DNA of 64,000 nucleotides. Source: an uncultured Eubacteriales bacterium (GTDB taxonomy: Bacteria; Acidobacteriota; Aminicenantia; Aminicenantales; UBA8522). Under the pieces are notes generated by a model. That model had not been told where the DNA came from. It worked only from the letters and a program-made list of their open reading frames with translations, and did no database searches. Position 1 is the stretch's first letter, and each line of letters opens with the position of its first letter. Both the position numbers and the translations under genes were made by a program. Below are positions 9,030 to 60,870 of the stretch, piece after piece. The DNA lies in the NCBI GenBank assembly GCA_964580435.1, contig CAZOKP010000003.1, positions 3,967-67,966 of the forward strand, in the 5' to 3' direction.

Positions 9030-9300
<271 letters not shown>

Positions 9301-40889: not shown

Positions 40890-40918
40890 TTGAAATAGCC
40901 CGGAAACTGATATAGAAT
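40890..40918 (+). promoter_or_regulatory. Sigma70-like promoter (TTGAAA-17-TAGAAT) for the Rrf2 regulator gene
   Basis: AT-rich region. The -35 is at 40890-40895 and the -10 at 40913-40918. It sits just upstream of the palindromic operator. Confidence 0.5.
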
Positions 40919-40929
40919 ATTTTTTGCGA

Positions 40930-40958
40930 GGAGCTTTCATCATTATCATGAAAGCTCC
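40930..40958 (+). promoter_or_regulatory. Perfect 11-bp inverted repeat (GGAGCTTTCAT-N7-ATGAAAGCTCC), candidate Rrf2 operator
   Basis: Seen directly in the sequence, between the -10 element and the RBS (AGGAGG) of the Rrf2 gene. The 29-bp size matches IscR/NsrR-type sites. Confidence 0.55.
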
Positions 40959-40973
40959 ATCAAGGAGGTCATC

Positions 40974-41432
40974 GTGATCAAAGTTTCTACCAAAGGAAGA
41001 TATGGTCTCCGCTTAATGTTAAACCTGGCCCGCCATTATAACAGCGGTACAAAGGCAGTCATCCTGAGAAACGTGGCCGAAGAGGAGGAAATCTCCCTCC
41101 GCTATCTAGAGCAGATCATCATTCCTCTGAAGATCTACAAGCTTGTGAAAAGTATTCGCGGAGCCGGCGGCGGCTACACTCTGGCCCGGAAACCTTCAGA
41201 GATCAACCTCTGCGAAATTCTGGAAGCCCTGGAAGGGACGTGCGCCCTCGTCGACTGCATCGAGGACAAGGATTTTTGCGACCGTCTCCCCGGCTGCGCC
41301 GCCTACGAGGTCTGGAAAGAAGCCAGCCGGATCCTGAAAAACTATTTCGAAAAGGTCACCCTCCAGTACGTCCTGGATATCTCCGAAAAAAAGAAGCCCA
41401 AAGGCAGGGATAAAGGCCGAGTTCGGCGCTGA
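40974..41432 (+). CDS. Rrf2-family transcriptional regulator with Cys cluster (probable Fe-S/redox sensing)
   Basis: N-terminal wHTH (STKGRYGLRLMLNLA). It has the GTCALVDC-x6-C-x5-C cysteine pattern. GTG start with a good RBS. Confidence 0.8.
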   Translation: MIKVSTKGRYGLRLMLNLARHYNSGTKAVILRNVAEEEEISLRYLEQIIIPLKIYKLVKSIRGAGGGYTLARKPSEINLCEILEALEGTCALVDCIEDKDFCDRLPGCAAYEVWKEASRILKNYFEKVTLQYVLDISEKKKPKGRDKGRVRR

Positions 41433-41518
41433 TTCCCTGCTCATTTTTTTCCTGCAAAAGGGTCTTTTCCCCGTTTTGATTGCGGCGGCCCGCCGGGATA
41501 AAAAAGGTCACTTTTCTC

Positions 41519-41547
41519 TTGACATTCCCTGCCCTCTTCTGTATAAA
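41519..41547 (+). promoter_or_regulatory. Sigma70-like promoter (TTGACA-17-TATAAA) upstream of the multiheme cytochrome cluster
   Basis: Near-consensus -35 and -10 boxes, ~80 nt upstream of the proposed TTG start of the decaheme gene. Confidence 0.5.
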
Positions 41548-41626
41548 ATCTATCGAATTTATAGAACATATAAATTCTCTCAATAAAGAGACAAGATGGA
41601 CGAAGAATTCCTCAAGGAGGTTGGAG

Positions 41627-42487
41627 TTGCCAGCGACAATAAAAAGAAGGCGAAATAGAGTCTCCCTCACGACGTGCGCCCTCCTGGTTGTGGTTATTGC
41701 CGCCGTCGGGTTGGGGATAGCAGCCAGGCCGGCTCCTCAGGCAAAAGACGCCGAGACCTGCGGCACCTGCCACGAAGACCTGGTCAAGGCCTTTGCCTCC
41801 CGGCCTCATGCTGCTTTAGCCGGCAAGACCTGCACGGCCTGCCACGGCAGCGGAGAAAAACACATTGAAGAAGGGGGCAAAACCGGGATCTTTGCCTTTG
41901 CGGCCTCGGACCTGGTCAGCGAAAAAACCAACACGTGCCTGACCTGTCACGCCAAGGACAATCCCCGCTTCCTGACGAGCCCGCATGGAAAAGCTTCTCT
42001 CGACTGCACCACCTGCCACAGCGTTCACGGCGAGGAAGCCGCTTCTCCCCTGCTCAAGACCAAAGAGAACAAAGTCTGCGCCCGCTGCCATGAAGACATT
42101 TTTGCCCAGTTCCAGCTCAACGAACGGCACCGGCTTCAGGAAGGAATCCTGTCCTGCGCCACCTGCCACAACCCCCACGAACCTTCTGCAAGAACGATGC
42201 TGGGCGGGTTCAAACAGGAACAGTGCCTCAAATGCCACACCGACAAGGGCGGACCTTTCCTGTATGAGCATCAAGCCTCCCGCGTCGAGGGCTGCACTGC
42301 CTGCCATGAAGTCCATGGATCACCTAATCGGCATATGCTGACCCACCAGAGCGTCGCCGACCTCTGCTTCAGCTGCCACGCCGAAGCGCCGGCCTGGCAC
42401 GCCGACTTCAGTCCCGAAGGGACCAACTGCGTGAACTGTCATTCCGCCATCCATGGCTCGAACCTGGACAAGAGATTCCTGAAATAG
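41627..42487 (+). CDS. Periplasmic decaheme c-type cytochrome, MtrA/PioA/MtoA-like
   Basis: Ten CXXCH motifs in ~290 mature residues. The N-terminal signal/anchor follows the proposed TTG start, which has GGAGG 6 nt upstream. The track ORF starts at 41480. Size and haem count match MtrA-family electron conduits. A porin-like gene follows. Confidence 0.7.
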   Translation: MPATIKRRRNRVSLTTCALLVVVIAAVGLGIAARPAPQAKDAETCGTCHEDLVKAFASRPHAALAGKTCTACHGSGEKHIEEGGKTGIFAFAASDLVSEKTNTCLTCHAKDNPRFLTSPHGKASLDCTTCHSVHGEEAASPLLKTKENKVCARCHEDIFAQFQLNERHRLQEGILSCATCHNPHEPSARTMLGGFKQEQCLKCHTDKGGPFLYEHQASRVEGCTACHEVHGSPNRHMLTHQSVADLCFSCHAEAPAWHADFSPEGTNCVNCHSAIHGSNLDKRFLK

Positions 42488-42497
42488 GAGAAATAGG

Positions 42498-44363
42498 ATG
42501 AGTCGGGAAAAAACCATCGGAATGTTCTTGGGCGTGGCGTTTGTGTTCTCCCTCGCCCCTACCCTCGAGGCCCAGAGCAGCAACTTTTACGGCGATTTCC
42601 TGCTGGGATATCGATATGTGAACAAGAGCGGCCCCGGAGCCAACTACAAGTATAGAGAGGACTACAACCTCCGCAGCGGGGCTCGCCTGACGAACTTCAC
42701 TCTCAGCTTCTCGCCGGATAACGGGCTCAAAAAGTTCTTCGACCGGCTGGACATCCGGATGTACAACCTTGGCGGAGACCCCTATGAGAACATCACCGTG
42801 GCCATGCAGAAGTACGGCAAGTATCTGATCCAGTATGACCGGAACAAATCGACCTATTTCTATCACGACCTGAACCTGGGCGACGGCGGCATCCCTTACG
42901 ACCTGTACAGGTTTGATTTCGACCGGGTCAGGGATACGGGCCTGGCTAAAGTCTGGCTGACCGGTCAAGCCGACCTCTATCTGAGCTTTGACCGTTACAC
43001 CAAAAAGGGGGACAGCCGGTACCCCCGCGACATCGAAAGACTGGAATTCCAGATGACCGGGCCCATCCAGGAAGAATCCAAGGAAGCCGCTGTCGGTCTC
43101 GACCTCCACTTCAACCGCTACTCCTTTATTTTCGAAGAAAAATTCCTGAACTCCAAGATCGAAAATAGGACCTTCCTTCCCGGCTACCTCGACGGAGGCC
43201 CTAACGCTGAATTTCCCACGGCGCTTTATTATTACTTCCTGAATGAGCCCTACGAGATCAAGTCCAACACCAGTTCCTTCAGATTCAACGCCCGACCGAT
43301 CAGCCGGCTCTTCCTGAGCGGGTCGGCCCAACTCACCCAGCTCGACCTGAACCTGGATTATTCAGAGCGAGCTAAGGGGGTCAATTATCTCGACAGGTAT
43401 TTTCAATACGACATCACCGGCACTGGCAAATTCGAGCGCAACTTTCAGCTCTATGGCCTGGATGTCTCTTACAATCTCTTCGATAACCTCAGCATCGTCG
43501 GGGCCTTTCGCTATCACAACTTCGACCAGACCGGCTCTCTCGAGATAAGCGGCGAGACAGAATCCCAGGATTTCGGGTACAAAACCCTTGGAGTCGACGC
43601 CGGCGTCCAATACCAGTTCTCCCCGAAGTTGGCCATGACCCTCGGCTATCGCTATGAAGACCGGAATCTGGACAACCTGGAGACGGTCACTTTTGAATTC
43701 GACACGGTCAAGAACGGCGGTTTCGGGAACCTTAAATGGGACGTTTCCCGGGCCTTAAAGCTGACCGTTGATTACGAGCGCAGCCAGTACACAGACCCCT
43801 TTACGCTGATCTCCCCGACAGCTTTTGACAGGCTGAGGATAACGGCAAGATACCAGGCCAATAACCTGAGCATCTCGGGGTCCTATCTCTGGAACAACTC
43901 CAAGAGCGAGGTCTTCGAGGATATCTGGAGAGCATCCAAGAACCAGTTCAATCTGCGCTTGGGCTATCATGTCGACCGTTTCAACGCCTCCGGAGGATTC
44001 GCTTACATCCAGGCCAAACGTCAAGGCAACCGGACCGTGAGCTTTCCTCCCTGGTGGACGGGGCCGGGCGGGACTTTCCTTTGGGAGATTCTTTACGAGG
44101 GGAAATCCAGCCTGCTGGACGGCTTGCTCTCTTATGACCTAGACAAGAATTGGAAACTCGGCGGCTATGCCAACTATTATTCCAATACAGGTTCCTGGGA
44201 AACCAGACGGACTGTTCTCAAGGCCTTCGTTGAATATGCTTTTACGGCCGGATATGTGGCCCAGGTCGGCTACAGGTTCGTTGATTATAAAGAGATAAAA
44301 TTCGGCTACAGTGATTACAAAGCCAATATTGTCGAGTTCGCCTTTGGCTATCGCTGGAAATAA
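42498..44363 (+). CDS. Outer-membrane beta-barrel porin, MtrB/PioB/MtoB-like partner of the decaheme cytochrome
   Basis: Signal peptide (…APTLEA/QSS), 621 aa, pervasive alternating aromatic/hydrophilic beta-strand pattern. It ends in the aromatic C-terminus FAFGYRWK. Immediately 3-prime of the MtrA-like gene, as in known porin-cytochrome gene pairs. Confidence 0.6.
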   Translation: MSREKTIGMFLGVAFVFSLAPTLEAQSSNFYGDFLLGYRYVNKSGPGANYKYREDYNLRSGARLTNFTLSFSPDNGLKKFFDRLDIRMYNLGGDPYENITVAMQKYGKYLIQYDRNKSTYFYHDLNLGDGGIPYDLYRFDFDRVRDTGLAKVWLTGQADLYLSFDRYTKKGDSRYPRDIERLEFQMTGPIQEESKEAAVGLDLHFNRYSFIFEEKFLNSKIENRTFLPGYLDGGPNAEFPTALYYYFLNEPYEIKSNTSSFRFNARPISRLFLSGSAQLTQLDLNLDYSERAKGVNYLDRYFQYDITGTGKFERNFQLYGLDVSYNLFDNLSIVGAFRYHNFDQTGSLEISGETESQDFGYKTLGVDAGVQYQFSPKLAMTLGYRYEDRNLDNLETVTFEFDTVKNGGFGNLKWDVSRALKLTVDYERSQYTDPFTLISPTAFDRLRITARYQANNLSISGSYLWNNSKSEVFEDIWRASKNQFNLRLGYHVDRFNASGGFAYIQAKRQGNRTVSFPPWWTGPGGTFLWEILYEGKSSLLDGLLSYDLDKNWKLGGYANYYSNTGSWETRRTVLKAFVEYAFTAGYVAQVGYRFVDYKEIKFGYSDYKANIVEFAFGYRWK

Positions 44364-44381
44364 CACCTCGAGGAGGAGATC

Positions 44382-46703
44382 ATGTTCAAAAGACCATACC
44401 TCTTAGGTCTTCTGGCTGTCCTTTTGATTTCTTCATTCCTGCTGGCGAATTCAGGCAGCCACAAATTCAAAGCTCAATCCAAGGAAGACAAAAATCGAAG
44501 GCTCTGGGCCACCTCGGCCCACGCCGCCAAGGATGACGAGCCTTTCGTCCATTGGAATGACACAGGCTCGATCCCCAAAGAGTGCGCCAAATGCCACAGC
44601 ACGCCCGGCTTCCGTGATTATCTCGGCGTCGACGGCACGGCCGTGGATGTGGTAGAAAATAGCGTTCCTGTGGGCACAACGGTCGAGTGCGCCGCCTGCC
44701 ATTCCGACCCTGACAACGGGGTCGTCCATGACCGCACCTATGCCATCTTTCCTTCGGGCGTGAAGGTCGAAGGACTCGGCCCGGAAGCGATGTGCATGGA
44801 ATGTCACCAGGGAAGGGCTTCGACGAAATCCATCAACAGTTCAATCGCCGGCTCCGGCGTGACTTCAGATGACGACCCCAGCTCCAAGCTGAAGTTTATC
44901 AACGTCCACTACTTTGCCGCTGCCGCCACTCAGCTCGGGACAGTCGTCCAGGGAGGATATCAGTACGCTGGAAAATCGTACGACGCCCGGTTCGCCCATA
45001 TCCCCGGATACAACGCCTGCCAGGTCTGTCATAATCCTCACTCTCTCGAAGTCGACCTAGAAGCCTGCAATACCTGCCATACCGGCGTCAAGGACCCGAA
45101 AGACATCCGCTTTTACGGATCTTTGGTCGACTACGACGGCGACGGGAATATCACCGAAGGCATCTACTACGAGATCGAGACAATCAGGGAGAACCTGTAC
45201 AACAGCATGCGGGCTTACGCCAGGGATGTCGTTGGGAAACCGATCGCCTATGATGGAAATAGCTATCCCTATTTCTTCAATGATAAGAACGACAACGGAG
45301 TTGTTGATTCCGACGAAGCGGACCCCAGCAACGGATACAGCTCCTTTACCGCCCGACTTCTCAAGGCCGCCTACAATCTCCAAGTGTCCGTAAAAGATCC
45401 TTGCCAATATGTCCACAACGGAAAATACATCATCGAGCTCTTGTATGATTCGATCGAGGACCTCAATTCTTCCCGTGGCGCCGGAACAGCCAAGACCGCG
45501 GTTTCGAAACCCCGTCTTACAAGGCCTTTGCAGGCCGACCGCAGGATCAAAGCCGGCGGCCAAGATCGAATCTCTCTCTTGAGGAATGATGATATCCTCA
45601 CCGGGAACCAGGTGGAGTCGTTCGGGGATGACTATTTGCAATATGCGCCTGCCCCCGGCCACGGCCTTGTCCGGACTGACGAAGGCCATTTCGACGGTTC
45701 TGCCGAAGCCTGGAGACACTGGGATGAAGAGGGAGAGGTTCCGTCAAGCTGCGCCAAATGCCATAGCGCCGAAGGTCTCCCCTACTTGCTCGAGAACGGC
45801 AAGATCGACAAGGCCATGGATATTTCTAACGGCCTGCTCTGCATGACCTGCCACATCGTGCCACCCCAGACAAGGCCAGTCGGTCCGGTGAAATTTCCCT
45901 CCGGAGTGAGCGTGGACCTGGGCGACAGCTCCAACCTGTGTCTCAACTGCCATCAGGGAAGAGCTTCAAAATTCTCGGTTGACAAGAGCATCGCCGGCGG
46001 CCCGGGGCCATACGGCTTTACCAACATCCATTATTATGCAGCGGCGGCTTCCTTCTTCGGCTCCGAAGTCCATGGCGGATACGAATTCAGCGGCAAAACT
46101 TATGCCGGGCGCAATATCTACACCAACCACAGCGGACTTTTCACCGATTGTATCGAGTGTCATATGGGGACCAAGAGCTTCAACAGGAAGCACGACGACT
46201 CTGACGCCTTGTTCCACAACGTCCAGACGCCCAACCCCGCCGATTGTGCGCCCTGTCATGGACAGGACATCGCCCAGCCCCATCCCGGTGCTGACCCCGG
46301 CCAGTTCGAGTTCGAGGGGATTCGGCCGGCCCAGACTCCTGACTACGATGCCGACGGAAACAAGAACGAATCCCTGCAGGCTGAGATCAAAGGGCTCGAA
46401 AATGCGCTCTACGCCCAGATTCAGACGTATGGCTCGAATATCGGCGCACCGATTGTCTACAACGAAACAAGCTATCCTTATTTCTTCAAAGATACGAACG
46501 GGAACGGCATTGTGGACCCTGATGAGCTGGATCCCGGCAACGGGTACGAATTCAATGCGCCCATGCTTAAGGCCGCGTATAATTTTCAGATGAGCAAGAA
46601 AGAGCCGTGCGGCTATATCCACAATCCCCGTTATATCGCTGAATTGCTCGCCGATTCTATCGGAAGTCTTGGCGGAAATATGAAAAAGTACACTTGGCGG
46701 TAA
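44382..46703 (+). CDS. Secreted decaheme c-type cytochrome built from two duplicated pentaheme modules
   Basis: Signal peptide and ten CXXCH motifs. Two internally homologous halves each end in …SYPYFF(N/K)D.N.NG.VD.DE.DP.NGY…LKAAYN(L/F)Q.S.K.PC.Y.HN..YI.ELL.DS. No lipobox. Confidence 0.7.
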   Translation: MFKRPYLLGLLAVLLISSFLLANSGSHKFKAQSKEDKNRRLWATSAHAAKDDEPFVHWNDTGSIPKECAKCHSTPGFRDYLGVDGTAVDVVENSVPVGTTVECAACHSDPDNGVVHDRTYAIFPSGVKVEGLGPEAMCMECHQGRASTKSINSSIAGSGVTSDDDPSSKLKFINVHYFAAAATQLGTVVQGGYQYAGKSYDARFAHIPGYNACQVCHNPHSLEVDLEACNTCHTGVKDPKDIRFYGSLVDYDGDGNITEGIYYEIETIRENLYNSMRAYARDVVGKPIAYDGNSYPYFFNDKNDNGVVDSDEADPSNGYSSFTARLLKAAYNLQVSVKDPCQYVHNGKYIIELLYDSIEDLNSSRGAGTAKTAVSKPRLTRPLQADRRIKAGGQDRISLLRNDDILTGNQVESFGDDYLQYAPAPGHGLVRTDEGHFDGSAEAWRHWDEEGEVPSSCAKCHSAEGLPYLLENGKIDKAMDISNGLLCMTCHIVPPQTRPVGPVKFPSGVSVDLGDSSNLCLNCHQGRASKFSVDKSIAGGPGPYGFTNIHYYAAAASFFGSEVHGGYEFSGKTYAGRNIYTNHSGLFTDCIECHMGTKSFNRKHDDSDALFHNVQTPNPADCAPCHGQDIAQPHPGADPGQFEFEGIRPAQTPDYDADGNKNESLQAEIKGLENALYAQIQTYGSNIGAPIVYNETSYPYFFKDTNGNGIVDPDELDPGNGYEFNAPMLKAAYNFQMSKKEPCGYIHNPRYIAELLADSIGSLGGNMKKYTWR

Positions 46704-46719
46704 GAGAGAAGACCTTCAA

Positions 46720-46749
46720 GGCGGCATCAAAAAATGCCGCCGTTTTTTT
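46720..46749 (+). terminator. Rho-independent terminator after the decaheme cytochrome gene
   Basis: GGCGGCAT-caaaaa-ATGCCGCC followed by GTTTTTTTA. Confidence 0.75.
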
Positions 46750-46758
46750 ACCATTTTT

Positions 46759-46789
46759 TTGACTTTTTGAAGGGGCAATGTTATAGAAT
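46759..46789 (+). promoter_or_regulatory. Sigma70-like promoter (TTGACT-17-TATAGAAT) for the octaheme cytochrome / ccs genes
   Basis: Located between the terminator and the RBS (AGGAAGG) of the 46841 gene. Confidence 0.45.
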
Positions 46790-46840
46790 AATCCGCCAAA
46801 TCTCTGGGAGAGGGCTTCAACATAAGCAGGAAGGTTTATC

Positions 46841-48076: not shown

Positions 48077-48145
48077 CCAAGACGGGACGGTGTTTAACCA
48101 CCGCTAAAATTAGTGGCCATTGAAAGGACGATGTAAGGATCAGGA

Positions 48146-50316: not shown

Positions 50317-50409
50317 GCGCAGCCGCGGCGGCAAATAGAAAGAAGACTGCAAATATTTCCGCAGAACAGACAGGCCGAACAGTCGGACCTTCGAGGAAAG
50401 CGATATAAG

Positions 50410-52422: not shown

Positions 52423-52825
52423 CTTCTTCTTGGGAGGCTCTCTCGTCGGGACTCTAAGCTCGCTTCTTTATCCCATCATCCGCTATCTCATCCCCCCGCG
52501 TCAGGCTGAGGCGGTGGCAAAGAAAATTGCCGCCGCCAAAGTAGGAGAGTTAGCTCCCAACTCCGCGAAGCTGTTCAAATTCGGGTCCTCTCCCGCCCTC
52601 TTGATTAATACCGCCGAGGGCCAGCTCCGGGCTTTTTCCGCCGTGTGCACTCACCTAACCTGCACGGTCAGCTATGAGAGCGACACCAGCACGCTTTATT
52701 GTCCCTGTCATAACGGCCGGTTCGACCTCGCCGGGAATGTCATATCCGGGCCGCCGCCCCGCCCATTAGAGACTTATGAAATCGAGGTGGTCAGCGGCGA
52801 TATCCTTGTCTCTAAGAAAGCTTAG
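52400..52825 (+). CDS. Rieske [2Fe-2S] iron-sulfur protein (bc-complex type)
   Basis: N-terminal TM/Tat-like segment and Rieske boxes CTHLTC…CPCHNG. The start overlaps the preceding cytochrome gene by 23 nt. Confidence 0.8.
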   Translation: MKRRTFVNFFLGGSLVGTLSSLLYPIIRYLIPPRQAEAVAKKIAAAKVGELAPNSAKLFKFGSSPALLINTAEGQLRAFSAVCTHLTCTVSYESDTSTLYCPCHNGRFDLAGNVISGPPPRPLETYEIEVVSGDILVSKKA

Positions 52826-52826
52826 A

Positions 52827-53900: not shown

Positions 53901-53919
53901 CTGAGGTCAAAATATTACA

Positions 53920-55206
53920 TTGAAAGTGAAAGAGAACAAAGAACGGGACAAAAACCGGATGAGATCGAAGCTCGTCTCTGTTGTCTCATTTTTGTTCCTC
54001 CTGGCCCTTCCTCTCTCGCTCTTCGGCCAAAAAAATTCCTGCCTGGAATGCCACAAGGAGATGGATGATCAGAACCTGCGCGCTCCTGTGGATGGATTCG
54101 CGACGGATGTTCATCGGCAATTCGGTCTGGGCTGCCAGGACTGCCATGGAGGCAACCCCCTGCAGGATGACGTGGGACTGGCCAAGGACAAGTCCTTCAA
54201 GGGGGCGCCCGGGAAAGCCAAGGTGCCGGAATTCTGCGGCTCCTGCCATTCCAATTCCGAGTACATGAGGCGCTTCAATCCAAATGTACGCGTGGACCAG
54301 CTTCAGACCTACTGGACGAGCAAGCACGGCGAGCTCCTGAGAAAAGGCGACACGAATGTCGCCGTCTGCACGGACTGCCATGGAATTCATGGGATTCAAG
54401 CCTCCAATTTCCCCAAATCCTCGACCTTCGCCTGGAACATCCCCCAGACCTGCGGCCGTTGCCATTCCAGCCAGGATGTGATGAAGGCCTACGGCATTCC
54501 CGTCAACCAAGTCGACGATTATAAACACAGCGTCCATGCGACCGCCCTTTTCGATAAAAAGGACCTCTCGGCGCCGGTCTGCAATGACTGCCATGGAAAT
54601 CACGGCGCTGCACCCCCTCAAGTTACGTCAATCGCTTTTGTCTGCCGGCAGTGCCATCCGAGCGCCGGAGACCTCTTTACTCAAAGCCCTCACAAGGCTG
54701 CTTTCGACGGACTGGGGATTTCGGAATGCGAAGCCTGCCACGGCAATCACAAGATTCTCGCCCCCACCGACGAGATGCTCGCCGGAGGACGCAACGACGT
54801 CTGCAGCCAGTGCCATGACACCGGGACCAAGCCTTATGAGACCGGGCTCGAGATGAAGCGGAAGCTCTCGGGCTATGTGGCCACATTTCAAACCGCCGAA
54901 GACCTTCTCGAAAGAGCCGAAAAACAGGGCGTCGAGGTCAGCGATCCTCGGTTCAAGCTCCAGGAGGCCTCCACGGCCTTGATCCTCGTCCGGAACCTGA
55001 CCCACGGCCTTTCCCTCACGGACATGGAAGCGAAGCTCGCTGAAGGGGACAACGTCATCGCCGAGGTCAAAGCGCTCGGCGGCGCCGCTTTGAAGGAAGC
55101 GAAATTCCGCAAGACAGGCCTTGTCATCACCACCGTCTTCATCTTCCTTCTCGCCCTGGCCCTTTATTTCAAGATCCGCGAGCTCCAGTCGCGACCCAAG
55201 GCCTAG
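53920..55206 (+). CDS. Nonaheme c-type cytochrome with C-terminal transmembrane anchor
   Basis: Nine CXXCH motifs and a C-terminal hydrophobic helix (GLVITTVFIFLLALALYF). The real start may be the internal Met near 53950, which is followed by a signal peptide. It follows the Rieske/cyt b genes directly. Confidence 0.7.
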   Translation: MKVKENKERDKNRMRSKLVSVVSFLFLLALPLSLFGQKNSCLECHKEMDDQNLRAPVDGFATDVHRQFGLGCQDCHGGNPLQDDVGLAKDKSFKGAPGKAKVPEFCGSCHSNSEYMRRFNPNVRVDQLQTYWTSKHGELLRKGDTNVAVCTDCHGIHGIQASNFPKSSTFAWNIPQTCGRCHSSQDVMKAYGIPVNQVDDYKHSVHATALFDKKDLSAPVCNDCHGNHGAAPPQVTSIAFVCRQCHPSAGDLFTQSPHKAAFDGLGISECEACHGNHKILAPTDEMLAGGRNDVCSQCHDTGTKPYETGLEMKRKLSGYVATFQTAEDLLERAEKQGVEVSDPRFKLQEASTALILVRNLTHGLSLTDMEAKLAEGDNVIAEVKALGGAALKEAKFRKTGLVITTVFIFLLALALYFKIRELQSRPKA

Positions 55207-55447
55207 AAACCCTGTCCTTCTCCCCAAAAAACGGGATCTGCGAATTGACAGCGAACTATTCCTCTTCAGAAAAAATATAAGAAGGGGTGGCGCGGTGCGT
55301 TCCCGAAGCGGCCGAGCGAATGGGGCGGGTGGGGGGGTCTTTAGCGAGGACGTGCGGGAACGCACCGGGACAGGCCCCCTTCGAGACACCTTTTATTATT
55401 ATTTCTATCGGTTACCTAAAAACTATCGCTTTTGTAGGAAATGGATA

Positions 55448-55476
55448 TTGACAATTTTCCGGGACTTCTCTAAAAT
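55448..55476 (+). promoter_or_regulatory. Sigma70 consensus-like promoter (TTGACA-17-TAAAAT)
   Basis: Seen in the 313-nt gap before the tetraheme cytochrome gene. It probably heads the 55520-59349 operon. Confidence 0.5.
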
Positions 55477-55519
55477 GGGGTTTCTTTTTGGAACAATTCA
55501 TGATCCCCAGGGAGGAACG

Positions 55520-56041
55520 ATGAAAAAGATCATTGTGCTTATCGTCATCATAGTTGCGATTTTGCTCATCAATCTTTTGGGCCAGAACTTCACCTATGTG
55601 GGATCGGCCAAGTGTGCGATCTGCCACAAGACGGAAACACAGGGCCAGCAGTATCCGATCTGGCAGAAGTCCAAGCATTCCATGTCCTTCGCCGCGCTCA
55701 GCTCTCCTGAGGCTGCTCCAAAAGCCCAGGCCGCCGGAGTGCAGAACCCGGCGGAAAGCCCCCAGTGTCTCAAATGCCATGCACCCCTCTTCGAGAAGGC
55801 CGCCGAACTCAAGGCCGAGGGCGTCACCTGCGAGGTCTGCCACGGCCCGGGAAGCGAATACAAAAAACTCACCATCATGAAAGACAAAGCCCTGGCCCAG
55901 AAGAACGGCCTGGTCCTCTATGAATCTTCGGATGCCGCTAAAAAACACTGCCTGACCTGCCATGAGAATGCTCACGGCACGAGCTTCGATTACGCGGCAG
56001 CCTGGGAAAAGATCAAACACGACAAACCGGCCGCAAAATAG
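55520..56041 (+). CDS. Small tetraheme c-type cytochrome (periplasmic, 174 aa)
   Basis: ATG with GGAGG 4 nt upstream, signal/anchor MKKIIVLIVIIVAILLINLLG, four CXXCH motifs. The track ORF 55121..56041 is over-extended at the 5-prime end. Confidence 0.7.
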   Translation: MKKIIVLIVIIVAILLINLLGQNFTYVGSAKCAICHKTETQGQQYPIWQKSKHSMSFAALSSPEAAPKAQAAGVQNPAESPQCLKCHAPLFEKAAELKAEGVTCEVCHGPGSEYKKLTIMKDKALAQKNGLVLYESSDAAKKHCLTCHENAHGTSFDYAAAWEKIKHDKPAAK

Positions 56042-56050
56042 ACCGCATTT

Positions 56051-57331
56051 TTGGCGATCATTTCCTGGATGCGAAAACCTGAGGTTGGCGTTTTATTCCT
56101 TCTGATTCTCGGGGCCTTCCTGTGGGCCGGTCCAGAAAAGACCCCTTCTTCGAACGCCCAGTGCTTGGCCTGTCACGGTTCCCAAGCCGCGGTCAGCGAA
56201 AAACTCAGGATCAATGAAAAGAACTTCCTCGGGTCGGCGCACGCATCCCTCGCCTGCACCGATTGCCACATGATCCAGCCGGGAGAGAGGGAAGGCGAGA
56301 TCCCGCATAGAAAGACTCTTCCGGATGTCAATTGCACAGCCGCCTGTCATCGTGAAAGCGGCCGGATCGGCACCGGACTGACTCCTCTTTCCTACCCCGA
56401 CAGCGTCCACGGCCGAGCCTATCTCGAAAGAGGAGTCAGGGAAGTGGCCAAGTGCTGGGACTGTCACGGAAAGCACAATATCAGGCCCGTTTCTGATCCC
56501 GAGTCCTCAGTCAGCAGGAAGAACATCCCCCTGACATGCTCGGCCTGTCATGAGGATATGCACGTCGTCATCAAGTACAACATCCACAGCGAAATGCCCT
56601 ATCACGAATACATGAAGAGCGTCCACGGCAAGGCCCTTTTTGAGAAAGGGCTTGTCCAATTCGCCGCCGTCTGCACCGACTGCCACGGCGTCCATGACAT
56701 CAAAGGCGTCGGCGAGCCCCATCTGATGGCCAAGCAGCCCCAGACCTGCGGCCGCTGCCACGAGCTCATCTTTGACGAGTACAAGCAGAGCCTCCACGGC
56801 CAGCAGGCCCTCGGCGGGAATGTTGATGCTCCGTTCTGTGTCGACTGCCACGGAGAACACGGCATCGCCTCGCCTAAGGAAGAAGGCTCCCCTACTTCTG
56901 TCAACAAGGTCCTCGATACCTGCTCGGCCTGCCACGCCCGGCCGGAGATCATGCAGAAATACGGCGTTCCCGAAGACCGGATTGCCACGTTTATCGACAG
57001 CCTGCACGGGATCGCCGTCGGGTTTGGCTACAAAGCCGCGGCCAATTGCACGAGCTGCCACGGCGTTCACGATATCAGGCCGGCCTCTGATCCCCTGTCC
57101 AAAATCAGCCCGGCCAACCTGCGGAAGACCTGCGGACAGCCCAGCTGCCATCCGAATATGCCAGAAAAAATTGCCACGGCCAAGATTCATATCGGCGCTG
57201 CTCAAAAAAACCCCGCCGCTCTCTTTTATGTTCAAAGGGTGCTCCTCATCCTGGTCATCGCCGTTCTCGTCATCACCGTGCTCTGGTTCATTCCCGGTTT
57301 CATCAAAAAAATGAGGCTCTTGAAAAAGTAG
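56051..57331 (+). CDS. Multiheme c-type cytochrome (9 CXXCH + CX3CH + CX4CH) with C-terminal TM anchor
   Basis: Signal peptide and repeated HG…C..CHG.H.I….DP.S…N…TC..CH units. It is a paralog of the next gene and of 53920. C-terminal helix VLLILVIAVLVITVLWFIPGFI. Confidence 0.7.
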   Translation: MAIISWMRKPEVGVLFLLILGAFLWAGPEKTPSSNAQCLACHGSQAAVSEKLRINEKNFLGSAHASLACTDCHMIQPGEREGEIPHRKTLPDVNCTAACHRESGRIGTGLTPLSYPDSVHGRAYLERGVREVAKCWDCHGKHNIRPVSDPESSVSRKNIPLTCSACHEDMHVVIKYNIHSEMPYHEYMKSVHGKALFEKGLVQFAAVCTDCHGVHDIKGVGEPHLMAKQPQTCGRCHELIFDEYKQSLHGQQALGGNVDAPFCVDCHGEHGIASPKEEGSPTSVNKVLDTCSACHARPEIMQKYGVPEDRIATFIDSLHGIAVGFGYKAAANCTSCHGVHDIRPASDPLSKISPANLRKTCGQPSCHPNMPEKIATAKIHIGAAQKNPAALFYVQRVLLILVIAVLVITVLWFIPGFIKKMRLLKK

Positions 57332-57335
57332 CGCC

Positions 57336-58580
57336 ATGGGTCAAGGCAAAGCTGTCTTTCTCGGGGTCGTCTTTCTTTTCTTCGGCGTGGCCTCGCCCTT
57401 TCTCCTCTCCCAGTCGAACGAGGACTGCCTCACCTGCCACGGAGACGCCGAGCTTAAGTCCGAAGCAGGGAAATCCCTTTTCTTGGATAGCGAGAAATTC
57501 CTGGCCTCAAGCCACGGCAAGGCGGAAATCTCCTGCGTCGATTGCCACGCCGACCTCGCCAAAATTAAGGATTTTCCGCACTCTTCTCCGTTGAAACCCG
57601 TTGATTGCAGCCGGTGTCATGAAGCGGCCGCCCGAGAATTCCAGAAAAGCGCCCATTATGCGGCCACGGGGACCGGGGAAAACGCTCTGGCTGTCAGCTG
57701 CAAGGACTGTCATGGAACGCATGACATCAAGGGCAAGTCAGATTATGACTCAGCCATCTTCCCCATCAACCTTCCCTCCACCTGCGAGAAATGTCATCTC
57801 GAGAGGGTGGCGGCCAAGAAAGGACCTGGTTTCGTCGGTCAATACAGGGAGAGCGTTCACTTCAAAGCCCTCGAAAAATCCGGGCTGACGATGTCGGCCA
57901 ACTGCAGCAACTGCCACGGAGCCCATGACATCAAAAAAGTTTCCGACCCGCTCGCCCCGGTCGCCCGCAAGAACATCATCAAGACCTGCGGAATGTGCCA
58001 CGTCGGTATAGAACGAGACTATCTCGAGGGAGTGCACGGCAAGGACTATGTCAAAGGCATCAAGGATGTTCCCGTCTGCACCGACTGCCACAGCGAGCAC
58101 GATATCCTCTCGCCGCAGGACCTGAACTCCACGGTATATGCAACCAAGGTTGCGGAGGTCTGTTCCCGCTGCCATGACAACATGGCTTTGAGCCGGGAGT
58201 ACGGCTTCCTGACTTCGCGCCTGAAAACTTACAACCAAACCTTCCACGGGACCGCCTCGAGATACGGGGAAACGCGCGTGGCCAATTGCGCCTCCTGCCA
58301 CGGTTTCCACGGCATCCGGCCATCTTCGGACCCGAAATCCTCCATTAACCCGGAAAACCTGCCCAAAACCTGCGGGAAATGCCATCCCGGCGCCAGCCGC
58401 CACTTCGCTGAGGGCCAGGTTCACGTCATCCCCGAAGAAATTGTCACGGCCAAATATAGGTCTGCCCATCTTGTCAAGAACATCTATATTATCGTGATTT
58501 CGATTATTATCACGGTCTTCCTCATTTTTATCGCCGCGGACCTGTTCAGACGGATTATTAGAAAGGAAAAACATGGCTAG
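57336..58580 (+). CDS. Undecaheme c-type cytochrome with C-terminal TM anchor
   Basis: Eleven canonical CXXCH motifs and the same repeat unit. C-terminal helix IYIIVISIIITVFLIFIAADLF. It overlaps the next gene by 8 nt. Confidence 0.7.
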   Translation: MGQGKAVFLGVVFLFFGVASPFLLSQSNEDCLTCHGDAELKSEAGKSLFLDSEKFLASSHGKAEISCVDCHADLAKIKDFPHSSPLKPVDCSRCHEAAAREFQKSAHYAATGTGENALAVSCKDCHGTHDIKGKSDYDSAIFPINLPSTCEKCHLERVAAKKGPGFVGQYRESVHFKALEKSGLTMSANCSNCHGAHDIKKVSDPLAPVARKNIIKTCGMCHVGIERDYLEGVHGKDYVKGIKDVPVCTDCHSEHDILSPQDLNSTVYATKVAEVCSRCHDNMALSREYGFLTSRLKTYNQTFHGTASRYGETRVANCASCHGFHGIRPSSDPKSSINPENLPKTCGKCHPGASRHFAEGQVHVIPEEIVTAKYRSAHLVKNIYIIVISIIITVFLIFIAADLFRRIIRKEKHG

Positions 58581-59349
58581 TTCTCCCCTTGTCCGCGACG
58601 ACGAGATCTTCCTGCGGATGAATCTCGCCGAACGGATCCAGCACTATCTCCTCATCGCCACGTTCTTTCTGCTCATGGTCACGGGGATTCCCCTTTTCTT
58701 CTACGAATTCAAGGCCTTCAAGTGGTTCTTCCCGACAGAGCAGGTTTTCTATATCCGGGGGATCATCCACAGGATTGCCGCGGTCGTTTTGATCATAAAT
58801 CTCATTTGGCACCTCTTTTACGCGACTCTGACGGCCCGGGGCCGGAATAACCTCAAGGTCATGATCCCCAAATTCCGCGACGGCAAAGACGCCTTTGAAC
58901 TTTTCTGGTACAACGTCGGGTTAACCCGCTTCCTCTACAGGCTGGGGTTCTTTCAGAAATTCTTCGAAACCCACCCCTACTGGCTTTTCCAGAACCCGCC
59001 CCTTTTCGGGCGCTATAATTTTATCGAGAAGTTCGAATACTGGGCCGTGGGCTGGGGCTCGGTCGTGATGATCATCAGCGGCTTCTTCATGTGGAATGTG
59101 GAGCTTTCGCTCCGCTTCTTCCCCCTCTGGGTCCATGACATCCTGGTCATGGTCCACGGCTACGAAGCCCTGCTGGCCTTTCTGGCGGTCATCATTTGGC
59201 ACATGTACAATGTCCATCTCAACCCCGAGGTCTTCCCCATGAGCAAAATCTGGCTGAACGGCAAAATCACGGGGAAAGAGCTCCGGCTGCTCCATCCTCT
59301 CGAATACCAGAAGATTGTCGAGGAACGGAAGAAAAGCCTCCGCCCGTAA
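58573..59349 (+). CDS. Dihaem b-type cytochrome, membrane subunit (FdnI/HydC/cytochrome b561-like, PF01292-type)
   Basis: Four to five TM helices with His pairs in characteristic positions (RIQHYLL…, IIHRIAAV…, HDILVMVHGYEA…, WHMYNVH). It is the last gene of the cytochrome operon. Confidence 0.6.
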   Translation: MASSPLVRDDEIFLRMNLAERIQHYLLIATFFLLMVTGIPLFFYEFKAFKWFFPTEQVFYIRGIIHRIAAVVLIINLIWHLFYATLTARGRNNLKVMIPKFRDGKDAFELFWYNVGLTRFLYRLGFFQKFFETHPYWLFQNPPLFGRYNFIEKFEYWAVGWGSVVMIISGFFMWNVELSLRFFPLWVHDILVMVHGYEALLAFLAVIIWHMYNVHLNPEVFPMSKIWLNGKITGKELRLLHPLEYQKIVEERKKSLRP

Positions 59350-60860: not shown

Positions 60861-60870
60861 AGGGAAGCCT

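Follow-up and report, generated by a model that had tools for sequence, protein, structure and literature searches.

The locus reported here has precedents in two gene clusters, the Mtr plus PetAB cluster of Zixibacteria RBG-1 (PMC3903129) and the extHIJKLMNOPQS cluster of Geobacter (PMC5877670). The former was interpreted as serving Fe(II) oxidation, on the argument that it includes no extracellular cytochrome (PMC3903129). With respect to the outer membrane, a decahaem cytochrome housed in a barrel of 26 to 28 strands is known in no other role than that of a wire across this membrane (PMC7198977). We describe a locus of 15 consecutive, co-oriented genes on the plus strand (40974-59349) of a 64,000-nt stretch of Aminicenantes DNA, hereafter the window. 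The host belongs to the class Aminicenantia of the Acidobacteriota in GTDB usage, and we know of no cultured member of the Aminicenantes. Published studies describe these bacteria as fermenting organisms or scavengers of peptides, the one gene that FeGenie flagged in them was cyc2 (iron oxidation), and a later paper likewise suggested iron oxidation via cyc2; this background weighs against the outward respiratory reading proposed below. A literature search found no published description of such a locus in Aminicenantes.

Gene content and haem-motif census

Overall, the locus is a genuine, conserved 15-gene multihaem respiratory supercluster (Table 1). Its eight cytochrome genes contain 78 canonical CXXCH motifs (10+10+8+17+9+4+9+11), numbers that are kept in nearly all orthologues, and three variant sites conserved in orthologues, a CX4CH in the 17-haem protein plus a CX3CH and a CX4CH in the first 11-haem paralogue, bring the total to about 81. 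A six-frame count gave 79 CXXCH within 40890-59349 and none, in any frame, across the 45.5 kb of the window that lie outside this interval, a density far beyond chance. The true starts of several genes lie downstream of the longest-ORF start: c10A at about 41627, cytochrome b at 52827, the 9-haem gene at about 53959 and the tetrahaem gene at 55520.

A preliminary description of this DNA had reported about 80 haem motifs, which these counts bear out, and twelve genes, which must be corrected to the 15 that its own list names. Each of its family assignments was recovered by Pfam or NCBIfam profile search (Rrf2, DmsE/MtrA-type decahaem, beta-barrel, ResB, CcsA, NapC/NirT-type N-terminus, Rieske, cytochrome b and PF01292). 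Specifically, the searches confirm the locus's own regulator (PF02082, TIGR00738), in-locus System II maturation genes (PF05140, PF01578, TIGR03144), a Rieske-cytochrome b pair (PF00355, PF00033, PF00032) and a dihaem cytochrome b (PF01292). The proposed 17-haem NapC-like quinol dehydrogenase does have a NapC/NrfH-like head (PF03264, 2j7a_C), along with one further CX4CH site, and the octahaem is more precisely an HAO-family protein (PF13447). The porin-cytochrome reading agrees with the match of the decahaem to MtrA (6r2q_A) and with MtrB (6r2q_B) as best match of the barrel model, and the decahaem described as duplicated indeed has halves that are 38% identical (E 1e-66).

Table 1. Features of the locus and its downstream margin (window coordinates)
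Feature	Coordinates	Strand	Details
Promoter-like site near rrf2	40890-40918
Rrf2-family transcription regulator, 152 aa	40974..41432	+	PF02082 E 1.9e-33; TIGR00738 112.5 bits, cutoff 73.3
Promoter-like TTGACA-17-TATAAA, then palindromes; candidate operator	41519..41577	+
Palindrome TCTAT-N7-ATAGA	41549-41565	+	part of candidate operator upstream of c10A
9+9 palindrome	41555-41577	+	overlaps TCTAT-N7-ATAGA
c10A, periplasmic decahaem, MtrA/DmsE family	41627..42487	+	10 CXXCH
Large outer-membrane beta-barrel, 621 aa	42498..44363	+	MtrB-like by fold (predicted)
Secreted tandem decahaem, 773 aa	44382..46703	+	two pentahaem-plus-helical-domain repeats
Strong intrinsic-terminator-like hairpin	46720..46741	+	8 bp, 6 G-C, then T7
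Promoter-like TTGACT-17-TATAGA	46759-46787	+	3' of terminator-like hairpin
HAO-family octahaem, 411 aa	46841..48076	+	PF13447 99.5 bits, cutoff 21.9
ResB/Ccs1, System II cytochrome c maturation	48146-49501	+	PF05140 272.9 bits
CcsA/CcsB, System II	49498-50316	+	PF01578 185.4 bits; TIGR03144 270.3 bits, cutoff 187.6
Membrane-anchored 17+1-haem cytochrome, 670 aa	50410..52422	+	17 CXXCH + conserved CX4CH
Rieske 2Fe-2S subunit, b6f PetC type, 141 aa	52400..52825	+	PF00355 58.2 bits; PetC TM-anchor match
Cytochrome b, unsplit b6 + subunit-IV-like part, 357 aa	52827..53900	+	PF00033 163 bits; PF00032
9-haem cytochrome, signal peptide + C-terminal TM anchor	53959..55206	+	9 CXXCH; ORF start 53920
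Promoter-like TTGACA-17-TAAAAT	55448..55476	+	11/12 consensus matches; in 313-bp spacer before tetrahaem gene
Tetrahaem cytochrome c554-like, N-terminal hydrophobic anchor or signal, 173 aa	55520..56041	+	PF13435 46.9 bits, cutoff 20.8
First 11-haem cytochrome, C-terminal TM anchor	56051-57331	+	9 CXXCH + CX3CH + CX4CH
Second 11-haem cytochrome, C-terminal TM anchor	57336-58580	+	11 CXXCH
Dihaem cytochrome b, FdnI-like, 258 aa	58573..59349	+	PF01292 44.6 bits, cutoff 30.1
Possible regulon extension: operator-like palindromes + two flavoproteins	59450..62130	+	palindromes at 59450-59475, 1 mismatch
Two geranylgeranyl-reductase-family flavoproteins	59496-60860 and 60871-62130	+	profile search

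Outer-membrane module

The c10A reading frame could open at 41480 (longest ORF) or at 41690 (gene callers), and its likely start is a TTG that follows AAGGAGG. The protein aligns with positions 2-257 of the 258 in TIGR03508 at 184.5 bits, just under the cutoff of 192.2, and with MtrA at E 1.9e-28; ten motifs are present in 20 of 21 orthologues. The barrel was modelled by AF2 with about 28 strand elements (pLDDT 83), and Foldseek placed MtrB first (E 1.3e-15, TM 0.65), followed by 22-strand TonB receptors (E 5e-9, TM 0.45). These best matches point to an MtrB-like outer-membrane porin. The barrel protein of the window has no match to the MtrB/PioB sequence models PF11854/TIGR03509, which, like the sub-cutoff TIGR03508 score, weighs against the outward path; some homologues 50% identical to it carry PF11854, and NCBI names one of these 'MtrB/PioB family'.

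In the tandem decahaem, a disordered linker of roughly 70 residues connects the two repeats, and the protein has no lipobox. An MtrC fold was rejected for this protein; its repeats show the NrfA/OcwA fold, a call that comes from AF2 models built without haems, whose confidence is moderate (pLDDT 73). The Foldseek match of the tandem decahaem to OcwA, a terminal reductase, is weak (E 6.5e-3, TM 0.34). The PDB titles of OcwA and of the Carboxydothermus S-layer undecahaem describe both as cytochromes of the cell surface. To judge from the place of its gene behind the barrel gene, and from these fold relatives, which come from other cell-envelope types, the tandem decahaem would be extracellular. 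The missing lipobox and MtrC fold, the moderate model confidence and the weak OcwA match count against the outward path.

HAO-family octahaem

The best PDB match of the octahaem is Kustc0458 of Kuenenia (6h5l, E 4.8e-34), which reduces nitrite to NO (PMC8042395); other HAO, HOX and HDH matches are at about 1e-25. The cross-link residue Tyr467 of NeHAO aligns with a Leu in 'HANPDYALWYGW', and the distal Asp-His of 'CHMGFDH' is invariant in 29 orthologues. The octahaem is thus apparently of the reductive type without a tyrosine cross-link, and its HAO-family identity opens a branch to nitrogen-oxide reduction. HAO-like folds, as well as NrfA-like ones, are typical of enzymes acting on soluble substrates, an observation that weighs against extracellular electron transfer as the main function.

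Inner-membrane modules

The ResB/Ccs1 and CcsA/CcsB genes overlap by 4 nt, and in about 55 loci they are neighbours of the gene for the 17-haem protein. The N-terminus of the 17+1-haem protein matches PF03264 (36 bits, cutoff 24.1), its residues 11-71 align with D. vulgaris NrfH (2j7a_C) over a stretch that takes in both the TM helix and CXXCHXM, and 68 of 72 homologues keep CXXCHXM; by sequence, this part is an NrfH-type quinol-dehydrogenase head. The end of its gene overlaps the Rieske gene by 23 nt, and cytochrome b starts 1 nt past the Rieske stop codon. The CTHLTC...CPCHNG boxes can be read in the Rieske protein, which scores 87.7 bits against NF045928 (cutoff 250). Cytochrome b carries PEWY and the haem-ligand motifs HX13H and HX14H, has no Cys at the haem-ci position, and scores 201.7 bits as cytochrome b6 and 205.4 as ExtP, both under the respective NCBIfam cutoffs.

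Nine motifs are found in 46 of 47 orthologues of the 9-haem protein, which is related to both 11-haem paralogues (E 1e-23 to 1e-25), and four in all 51 orthologues of the tetrahaem; the latter matches the Nitrosomonas c554 model at E 5.5e-12, far under the equivalog cutoff. The 11-haem paralogues are 37% identical (E 2e-71), with motif numbers conserved in orthologues. The gene for the dihaem cytochrome b (conserved His66/His80 and His195/His210) overlaps the preceding 11-haem gene by 8 nt, and in five relatives an 11-haem cytochrome is fused with a PF01292 cytochrome b. The inner-membrane core also recurs in other phyla, namely Neomarinimicrobiota, Bacteroidota, Kryptonia and Bipolaricaulota.

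Transcription units and candidate operator

Terminator-like and promoter-like elements lie between units of the locus, which on this evidence comprises at least three predicted transcription units rather than a single operon. The hairpin after the tandem decahaem ends an rrf2-c10A-porin-decahaem unit, in agreement with this unit being inverted or absent in some relatives; in others, rrf2 heads the locus even without the porin module (four loci). A C-x4-C-x6-C-x5-C motif, kept in 15 of 16 orthologues, suggests that the Rrf2 regulator probably binds Fe-S. In 1.23 Mb of related loci, the exact TCTAT-N7-ATAGA palindrome occurs 13 times, always between genes and just upstream of c10A (4), c4 (5), ResB (2) or FAD1 (2); relatives carry it in the same spacer before the tetrahaem gene. 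Its location upstream of separate units, here and in relatives, suggests one regulon. The units appear to share this operator, and the Fe-S-type Rrf2 whose gene heads the locus is its probable ligand.

The regulon possibly extends to the two downstream flavoproteins, whose sole functional clue is a weak MenJ-like match. Both genes follow the locus in six relatives, two of which have an exact palindrome ahead of the FAD1 orthologue. Upstream lie a 2-oxoacid:ferredoxin oxidoreductase and an ADP-forming acetyl-CoA synthetase, in keeping with an anaerobic heterotroph needing an electron sink.

Discussion

We consider it somewhat more probable than its alternatives combined (roughly 55%) that the locus is a respiratory supercluster of chromosomal location and vertical descent, passing electrons from membrane quinol to periplasmic and extracellular acceptors. 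Complexes, substrates and direction of flow are here inferred. As many as three inner-membrane modules would oxidize the quinol, presumably menaquinol. One is the NrfH-type head of the 18-haem protein. Another is the Rieske/b6-type cytochrome b pair with its PEWY Qo site; its genes overlap or abut the 18-haem gene, so the pair is probably in one complex with the 18-haem protein, and the 9-haem and c554-like 4-haem proteins would stand in for cytochrome c1/f. The last is a CbcBA-like pair of C-terminally anchored 11-haem cytochrome and dihaem cytochrome b. Electrons would then cross the periplasm along the long haem chains. One branch may end at the HAO-type octahaem, seemingly without cross-link tyrosine and of a kind shown in Kuenenia to convert nitrite to NO. 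The other would run through the MtrA-type decahaem threaded in the MtrB-like barrel to the secreted tandem decahaem, which would be the terminal reductase, with Fe(III)/Mn(IV) minerals, humics or partner cells as its acceptors. ResB/CcsA, encoded mid-locus, would attach the roughly 81 haems. Three quinol-oxidizing modules exceed the need of a single linear path, so the wiring may differ from this proposal. The path from quinone pool to exterior that had been suggested earlier is kept as the most economical reading.

The same hardware might instead run inward, the MtrAB-like conduit drawing on Fe(II), reduced humics, an electrode or a syntrophic partner as electron donor and delivering the electrons to acceptors in the periplasm, where the HAO-type reductase would use nitrite or NO, or uphill through Rieske/cytochrome b to the quinone pool. 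The homologues MtoAB and PioAB function in Fe(II) oxidation, the RBG-1 cluster was interpreted likewise (PMC3903129), the HAO-type enzyme could form the oxidant-side terminus, cyc2 has already prompted such a proposal for Aminicenantes, and direction is not given by sequence. We nonetheless regard inward flow as unlikely: a candidate outer decahaem fold-related to surface cytochromes follows the barrel gene, NrfH-type heads and CbcBA-like modules are known quinol oxidizers, the neighbouring genes encode fermentative acetate-forming enzymes, and the window contains no carbon-fixation or terminal-oxidase genes. A mainly periplasmic reductase system acting on oxyanions in soluble or colloidal form (for example nitrite, NO, hydroxylamine, sulfite, polysulfide or selenite) would have the octahaem and the NrfA-fold tandem decahaem as catalytic subunits, fed by the NrfH-like, Rieske/cytochrome b and CbcBA-like quinol dehydrogenases, and the barrel-decahaem pair as substrate access or side branch. 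This is quite doubtful, as the tandem decahaem has ten CXXCH motifs and lacks the CXXCK of NrfA, its gene is predicted to share a transcript with the MtrA/MtrB homologues that ends at a terminator of its own, the decahaem-in-barrel arrangement has the wire role cited above, and the octahaem is absent from many loci that retain the inner-membrane core.

In terms of origin, the preliminary description had seen a possibly horizontally transferable island. A self-contained unit recently acquired as a whole could account for the locus having its own regulator and maturation genes, for a tetranucleotide correlation that dips slightly, to r 0.87-0.90 in 5-kb windows, where the porin and the tandem decahaem are encoded, for an outer-membrane module inverted or missing in some relatives, and for the homologues of the inner-membrane core in several phyla. 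The suggested comparison of composition with the flanks argues otherwise: GC is flat across the window (0.53-0.57), and the whole-locus tetranucleotide profile resembles that of the flanks (r 0.95; control blocks reach 0.97-0.98). Moreover, no tRNA gene was found and no integrase or transposase occurs among the larger ORFs of the window, which were those scanned, and the flanking genes are housekeeping genes. Gene order and neighbours, POR upstream and the GG-reductase-like gene downstream, recur across dozens of Aminicenantes MAGs; full synteny was seen in eight loci and the core ResB-CcsA-17haem-Rieske-cytb-9haem-4haem in about 50, and protein identities of 55-90% track together across all 15 genes. 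Recent transfer is therefore highly improbable and already largely refuted; the sequence evidence indicates inherited chromosomal DNA, not a mobile island.

Whether such an arrangement has been described can be answered in part: its kind has, in the RBG-1 Mtr plus PetAB and Geobacter extHIJKLMNOPQS clusters, and a gene-for-gene match has not. A difference from RBG-1 is the candidate outer decahaem that follows the barrel gene here, RBG-1 being without an extracellular cytochrome. This decahaem differs from MtrC in fold and in having no lipobox. The octahaem is an HAO-family protein, the cross-link tyrosine seemingly being absent, and the 11-haem cytochrome followed by dihaem cytochrome b has the same layout as Geobacter CbcBA, CbcA and then CbcB.

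Proposed electron path

Our preferred reading of the locus is an outward electron path from quinol to extracellular acceptors; we infer its direction, substrates and complexes, and place its probability at roughly 0.55. Electrons would enter redundantly from quinol through an NrfH-type head, a Rieske/cytochrome b pair and a CbcBA-like pair (an 11-heme cytochrome with a PF01292 diheme cytochrome b), and long heme wires would carry them onward to two candidate exits: a periplasmic HAO-type reductase, and a conduit of the MtrAB type leading to a surface decaheme.

Gene content and heme sites

The 15 consecutive genes of the locus are separated by short gaps or overlap. Eight of them encode cytochromes with, in order, 10, 10, 8, 17, 9, 4, 9 and 11 CXXCH motifs (78 in all), and three variant sites are also kept across orthologs: a CX4CH in the 17-heme protein, and a CX3CH and a CX4CH in the first "11-heme" paralog, at positions where its sister paralog has CXXCH. 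The total is therefore ~81 heme sites (78 CXXCH plus the three variants), in agreement with the ~80 motifs of the preliminary description, which spoke of twelve genes but correctly named all 15. A six-frame count found 79 CXXCH in the region versus none in the remaining 45.5 kb of the window, and the motif counts per gene are nearly always identical in orthologs from related genomes. These are real c-type cytochrome genes under selection.

Features of the locus and its surroundings (window coordinates)
Feature	Position	Strand	Remark
Large bacterial SRP RNA	9032-9298	-	full length, 157 bits; only Rfam match in the window
TCTAT-N7-ATAGA pair, one mismatch	14499-14524		between an M14-peptidase-like ORF and the following gene
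PAS/HisKA/HATPase protein	15170-16714		GGDEF-like tail
ADP-forming acetyl-CoA synthetase-like gene and two-gene 2-oxoacid:ferredoxin oxidoreductase	36122-40656	-	divergent from the locus
Locus	40974-59349	+	15 genes
Outer-membrane unit	40974-46741	+
TCTAT-N7-ATAGA, exact	41549-41565		right after a TTGACA-17-TATAAA promoter-like site; 78 nt 5' of the likely decaheme start
Terminator-like hairpin	46720-46741		strong; closes the outer-membrane unit
Middle unit	46841-55206	+	octaheme to 9-heme gene
Longest ORF through spacer	from 55121
Spacer before tetraheme gene	55207-55519		313 bp
Third unit	55448-59349	+	c554-like tetraheme, two 11-heme paralogs, PF01292 cytochrome b, in this order
TCTAT-N7-ATAGA copies, one mismatch	59450-59475		precede the flavoprotein genes
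Two geranylgeranyl-reductase-family flavoprotein genes	59496-62130	+	straight after the locus
TCTAT-N7-ATAGA copy, one mismatch	62282-62298		5 nt 5' of the carA ORF start

The outer-membrane unit

The unit opens with an Rrf2 regulator in which a C-x4-C-x6-C-x5-C motif is conserved. The decaheme, which had been called MtrA-like on first inspection, bears this name out: it has 10 CXXCH, matches the MtrA chain in the Mtr complex structure (6r2q_A, E 1.9e-28) and aligns over its full length to the DmsE/MtrA model TIGR03508 at 184.5 bits, slightly below the curated cutoff of 192.2, which makes it a divergent member of the MtrA/DmsE family. The PDB chain 6r2q_A itself bears the molecule name 'Cystathionine beta-synthase'.

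With respect to the adjoining barrel, encoded after an intergenic gap of 10 nt, the proposed MtrB-like identity stood in fold but not in sequence models. Neither PF11854 nor TIGR03509 (MtrB/PioB) matched the 621-aa protein at E <= 0.01, and a profile of 20 orthologs retrieved no MtrB from the PDB by sequence. The AlphaFold (AF2) model (44 homologs, pLDDT 83, ~28 strand elements) has MtrB as its clear top PDB match (6r2q_B, E 1.3e-15, TM 0.65), versus E 5e-9 and TM 0.45 for 22-strand TonB receptors. Among homologs at ~50% identity, some contain PF11854, and one has the NCBI name "MtrB/PioB family". MtrB is a barrel of 26 strands; the modeled barrel, whose strand count is approximate, is predicted to be large enough to sheathe the decaheme.

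The 773-aa protein that follows is the tandem duplication that had been proposed, with halves 38% identical to each other (E 1e-66), each composed of a pentaheme region and a helical domain, and a disordered linker between them. A phmmer search of the PDB gave no sequence-level match to any solved structure. Because its matches include no MtrC or OmcA structure and it has no lipobox, the tandem decaheme is not an MtrC, and we rejected the identity of an MtrC/OmcA-family lipoprotein. Its gene position and its relatives in fold suggest an extracellular location.

The exact sequence of the tandem decaheme recurs as homolog P0121 on Logan contigs from ERR4334733/35/36. For the barrel, and for cytochrome b with either of two start positions, exact-sequence look-ups gave no match. 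Two relatives of ~1070 residues (P0204 and P0205, 38-41% identity) have an extra Paired_CXXCH domain and may be three-repeat or extended tandem decahemes. Another homolog, P0231, is labelled Candidatus Heimdallarchaeota and probably lies on a mis-binned contig.

The middle unit and its inner-membrane core

The octaheme belongs to the HAO family (PF13447, 99.5 bits), with its eight CXXCH in HAO order. Its PDB matches are HAO, HOX and HDH (E 5e-34 to 5e-24), the best being Kuenenia Kustc0458 (E 4.8e-34), which is without the tyrosine cross-link and converts nitrite to NO (PMC8042395). The cross-linking Tyr467 of NeHAO aligns, next to a gap, to a Leu within the invariant "HANPDYALWYGW" of the octaheme, and some orthologs have Trp at this position, as does Kustc0458. 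The distal Asp-His ("CHMGFDH") does not vary across 29 orthologs. The cross-link is probably absent from the octaheme, with a small doubt left by Tyr residues two positions to either side.

The System II maturation genes of the preliminary description are an unambiguous ResB and CcsA pair (ResB/Ccs1 PF05140, 272.9 bits; CcsA/CcsB PF01578, 185.4 bits; TIGR03144, 270.3 bits, cutoff 187.6). The NapC-like quinol dehydrogenase noted there is the 670-aa, 17-heme protein, or 18-heme NrfH fusion when its variant site is counted. It begins with a transmembrane helix and a NapC/NirT-type domain (PF03264, 36 bits, cutoff 24.1), a head that aligns to Desulfovibrio NrfH (2j7a_C) over the helix and CSTCHYM. 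The quinol-site heme motif CXXCHXM is kept in 68 of 72 homologs. Fusion of an NrfH-type head to ~14 further hemes is atypical, and the TIGR03153 equivalog score falls far below cutoff.

This gene overlaps that of the Rieske protein by 23 nt, and the cytochrome b gene starts one base past the Rieske stop codon. Both identities were recognized initially and hold here: the Rieske protein belongs to the PetC type known from b6f (PF00355 above cutoff, boxes CTHLTC/CPCHNG), and cytochrome b unites b6 and a subunit-IV-like part in one unsplit protein (PF00033 and PF00032 above cutoff) with four His heme ligands, HX13H and HX14H, and the PEWY Qo motif. At what we take to be the heme-ci Cys position, judged from the b6 motif in a by-eye alignment, the window cytochrome b has a Tyr and no Cys. 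No homolog of cytochrome c1 or f was found; the pair is flanked instead by multiheme cytochromes, the one following cytochrome b being the 9-heme protein with a C-terminal anchor.

At E <= 1e-10, a distant-homolog profile of the 17-heme protein recovered at least 2498 relatives, all with generic annotations, from sources that include Kryptonia, Rhodothermia, Bacteroidota, Ignavibacteria, Neomarinimicrobiota and Bipolaricaulia. On a Neomarinimicrobiota contig the order is multiheme-b561 fusion, 17-heme, Rieske, cytochrome b, multiheme and multiheme-b561 fusion. A second contig, with secretion-tail-domain neighbors, has 17-heme and c554-like genes, with Rieske, split cytochrome b and multiheme genes a few genes on. 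On a Bacteroidota contig the 17-heme gene adjoins multiheme/b561 modules, and the part read contains no Rieske or cytochrome b gene. An MtrAB-like unit was observed in none of these three contexts; among the loci examined, such a unit accompanies the core only in Aminicenantes. The inner-membrane core is a widespread, uncharacterized module.

The third unit

The spacer before the tetraheme gene is unusually long and includes a G-rich stretch; it matched no Rfam family. Within it lies a promoter-like site that agrees with 11 of 12 consensus positions. The N-terminal 133 residues of the longest ORF through the spacer look non-coding, being of low complexity and without homolog support.

As the preliminary description had it, two anchored ~11-heme paralogs and a cytochrome b occur together. 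The paralogs are 37% identical and have C-terminal anchors, and the cytochrome b is a PF01292 protein with four conserved His, its gene overlapping the last 11-heme gene by 8 nt in the Geobacter order of CbcA, then CbcB. In relatives, CbcL-like fusions join an 11-heme-type cytochrome and PF01292 in single proteins of 640-840 aa (related loci L022, L024, L029 (minus strand), L082 and L083), and we therefore argue that the two proteins act together. The conserved His reported for the C-terminal anchor of CbcA is not consistently present in that of the 11-heme protein.

A second CbcBA-like paralog family, absent from the window, occurs in related loci L001, L012, L014-L016, L019, L021, L024, L029, L030, L036, L073 and L078. 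This extra module is diverged (~30% identity) and pairs a C-terminally anchored 19-heme protein of ~924 aa with a separate PF01292 cytochrome b.

Conservation in Aminicenantes

A search with the 17-heme protein against one genome per species gave 78 loci. Nearly the whole set comes from Candidatus Aminicenantes (OP8) MAGs, with identities of 55-85%; the few others are distant and belong to Thermokryptus, Bipolaricaulota, Armatimonadetes and WOR-1. Many records named 'uncultured Eubacteriales' have the gene order and identities of those named Aminicenantes. When all window proteins were compared with the related loci by tblastn, the complete order (Rrf2, decaheme, barrel, tandem decaheme, octaheme, ResB, CcsA, 17-heme, Rieske, cytochrome b, 9-heme, 4-heme, 11-heme, 11-heme, cytochrome b561) was kept in L003, L004, L006, L007, L048, L053, L056 and L064, with identities in L053 of 72-93%, mostly 82-93%. 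The core from ResB through 17-heme, Rieske, cytochrome b and 9-heme to 4-heme recurs in ~50 loci. The decaheme-barrel-tandem-decaheme unit is inverted in L031, L036, L042, L052 and L059 and missing in L017, L039 and L047. The flanks are recurrent as well, with the 2-oxoacid:ferredoxin oxidoreductase upstream and the two geranylgeranyl-reductase-family genes downstream.

These data bear on the suggestion that the locus is a horizontally transferable island. GC content is flat (0.53-0.57) and like that of the flanks. Between the locus and the rest of the window, tetranucleotide profiles correlate at r 0.95, where control blocks reach 0.97-0.98; this slight difference sits over the barrel and cytochrome genes and is tentatively attributed to their unusual amino-acid composition. 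The comparison with flanking DNA that had been recommended as a check revealed no island signature. The window has no tRNA genes, its scanned (larger) ORFs include no integrase or transposase, the locus has no Rfam match, and the rest of the window is housekeeping in character (IleRS, SRP RNA, transketolase, CarA). Composition, tRNA genes, larger ORFs and synteny together speak against a recent genomic island, which we regard as highly improbable; the locus belongs to the inherited chromosome of the Aminicenantes lineage.

A fermentative, acetate-forming gene set directly adjoins this respiratory locus, and its 2-oxoacid:ferredoxin oxidoreductase gene is also the conserved upstream neighbor in L017, L039, L047 and L054.

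A probable shared operator

The palindrome TCTAT-N7-ATAGA, allowing at most one mismatch, occurs seven times in the window versus 0.86 expected. In 1.23 Mb of related loci we found 13 exact copies, all intergenic, where ~1 would be expected by chance on our own estimate; they lie upstream of the decaheme (4), the tetraheme (5), ResB (2) and the first downstream flavoprotein gene (2). The pattern argues strongly for a single regulon comprising the units of the locus, and the Rrf2 protein is the presumed binder. A 23-bp palindrome overlapping TCTAT-N7-ATAGA, GAATTTATA-N5-TATAAATTC, was dropped in its favor, being unique in the window and unconserved in relatives.

The copies before the flavoprotein genes are exact in the L003 and L064 orthologs, and one of these genes has a weak match to MenJ (menaquinone reductase); the flavoprotein genes may be regulon members, with a role in, for example, quinone side-chain modification. 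The remaining one-mismatch copies outside the locus (table) may be chance occurrences or mark more regulon members.

Alternatives and significance

The outward path has two rivals that draw on the same genes. Aminicenantes have been described as fermenting or peptide-scavenging bacteria, or as potential iron oxidizers via cyc2, and the last of these descriptions would accord with inward uptake, in which Fe(II) or a partner organism is oxidized; this we hold to be unlikely. Transcripts of "otr" and "nrfAH" have been reported for an Aminicenantes bin in one metatranscriptome. The second rival, a role mainly as a periplasmic oxyanion reductase, would make the HAO-type octaheme and the tandem decaheme the catalytic subunits and give the barrel-decaheme pair a lesser part, and appears quite improbable to us.

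Building on the outward path, a joint reading can be put forward tentatively, and it may well fail as a whole. Aminicenantes, which are abundant in anoxic sediments and treated as fermenters, would respire extracellular acceptors via a so far uncharacterized chain. A Q-cycle-capable Rieske/b6-type complex with the 18-heme NrfH fusion as its 'cytochrome c1', a core also present in Marinimicrobia, Bacteroidota, Kryptonia and Bipolaricaulota, would link energy-conserving quinol oxidation to an MtrAB-type conduit whose cap, built of two NrfA-fold pentaheme modules, would represent a new class of outer cytochrome, all under one Fe-S Rrf2 regulon with the TCTAT-N7-ATAGA operator.

Were the locus to function along the proposed path, an uncultured lineage widespread in anoxic sediments, aquifers and peat would respire metals or humics, or exchange electrons, rather than live purely by fermentation, and carbon and iron turnover in those systems would be assigned differently. 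MtrAB-type conduits would gain a third kind of outer partner, the NrfA/OcwA-fold tandem decaheme, and the 18-heme NrfH fusion with Rieske/cytochrome b would constitute a multi-phylum module that could be an energy-conserving quinol:multiheme oxidoreductase, unlike the CymA type of Shewanella. The short operator motif would allow regulon prediction in MAGs. Should the HAO-like and NrfA-like proteins be nitrogen or sulfur oxyanion enzymes, their wiring to Rieske/cytochrome b would be new outside anammox bacteria.

Comparison with known systems

Whether the arrangement had been described before was left open initially, and the answer is divided: its kind is known (PMC3903129, PMC5877670), whereas we found no description of the locus in Aminicenantes in the literature. 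The Dibrova 2017 survey of bc complexes mentions neither Aminicenantes nor multiheme partners.

The outer-membrane unit resembles Shewanella MtrCAB, MtoAB and PioAB in that an MtrA homolog lies directly upstream of a barrel whose best match is MtrB, with a second decaheme gene in the same unit. This third component is an NrfA/OcwA-fold tandem decaheme and not an MtrC/OmcA lipoprotein, and the gene order is A-B-X, whereas that of Shewanella is C-A-B. CymA is absent; the quinol side consists of the 18-heme NrfH fusion, Rieske/cytochrome b and the CbcBA-like pair. OcwA of Thermincola potens and the Carboxydothermus S-layer undecaheme are surface cytochromes of NrfA-like fold. They have 9 and 11 hemes, respectively, as opposed to the 5+5 tandem here, and their hosts are Gram-positive bacteria, whereas ours is a putative diderm with an MtrAB-type conduit.

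The closest described arrangement that we found, likened by description and derived from a MAG, is the Zixibacteria RBG-1 cluster of Castelle et al. 2013, whose account lists MtrA and MtrB homologs, multihemes and PetAB (PMC3903129). The relevant passage reports an extracellular cytochrome as missing and two monoheme cytochromes as present, and itself makes no mention of an HAO-type octaheme, in-cluster ResB/CcsA or a CbcBA-like module (PMC3903129).

In Geobacter sulfurreducens, extHIJKLMNOPQS (GSU2940-2930, with extM-S listed as Cbc6/CbcMNOPQR) places genes for a porin-like protein and a periplasmic multiheme beside 12-heme, 10-heme, Rieske, cytochrome b, membrane-protein and 4-heme genes (PMC5877670). 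Common to both loci is the order large multiheme(s), Rieske, cytochrome b, ..., tetraheme. All Ext equivalog models missed or scored below cutoff (ExtP on the window cytochrome b, 205 bits against 290; ExtN/ExtO, ~31 against 200; ExtM, E 0.0078 on the wrong protein), and orthology to Cbc6/Ext was rejected. Furthermore, ExtI is a ~21-strand porin with a rhodanese partner and is not MtrB-like, and the cytochrome b is unsplit here, where Geobacter has ExtP (23 kDa) and then a separate membrane protein, ExtQ (PMC5877670).

In architecture and gene order, the third unit is like Geobacter CbcBA, a C-anchored multiheme c cytochrome followed by a 4-TM diheme cytochrome b, and the fused versions in relatives are like CbcL. 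There are 11 hemes here and 7 in CbcBA, and four His are conserved within the b subunit itself, against three in CbcB.

The octaheme, a putative enzyme that is apparently of the reductive type, is most like the reductive HAO Kustc0458; a Leu aligns to the cross-linking Tyr, and the distal Asp-His pair is kept. It is ~100 residues shorter than solved HAOs, without their N-terminal 55-75 residues, and has no diheme partner like the Kustc0457 of Kustc0458. As in the HAO-c554-cM552 system of Nitrosomonas, where cM552 is of the NapC/NrfH type, a c554-like tetraheme and an NrfH/NapC-type membrane cytochrome share the locus; this NrfH-type protein differs in having 18 hemes, and the host is neither a nitrifier nor an anammox bacterium. 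Set against these systems, what is new is the NrfA/OcwA-fold tandem decaheme as partner of an MtrAB-type pair, together with the HAO-type branch, the coupling of an 18-heme NrfH fusion to Rieske/cytochrome b, and the shared operator.
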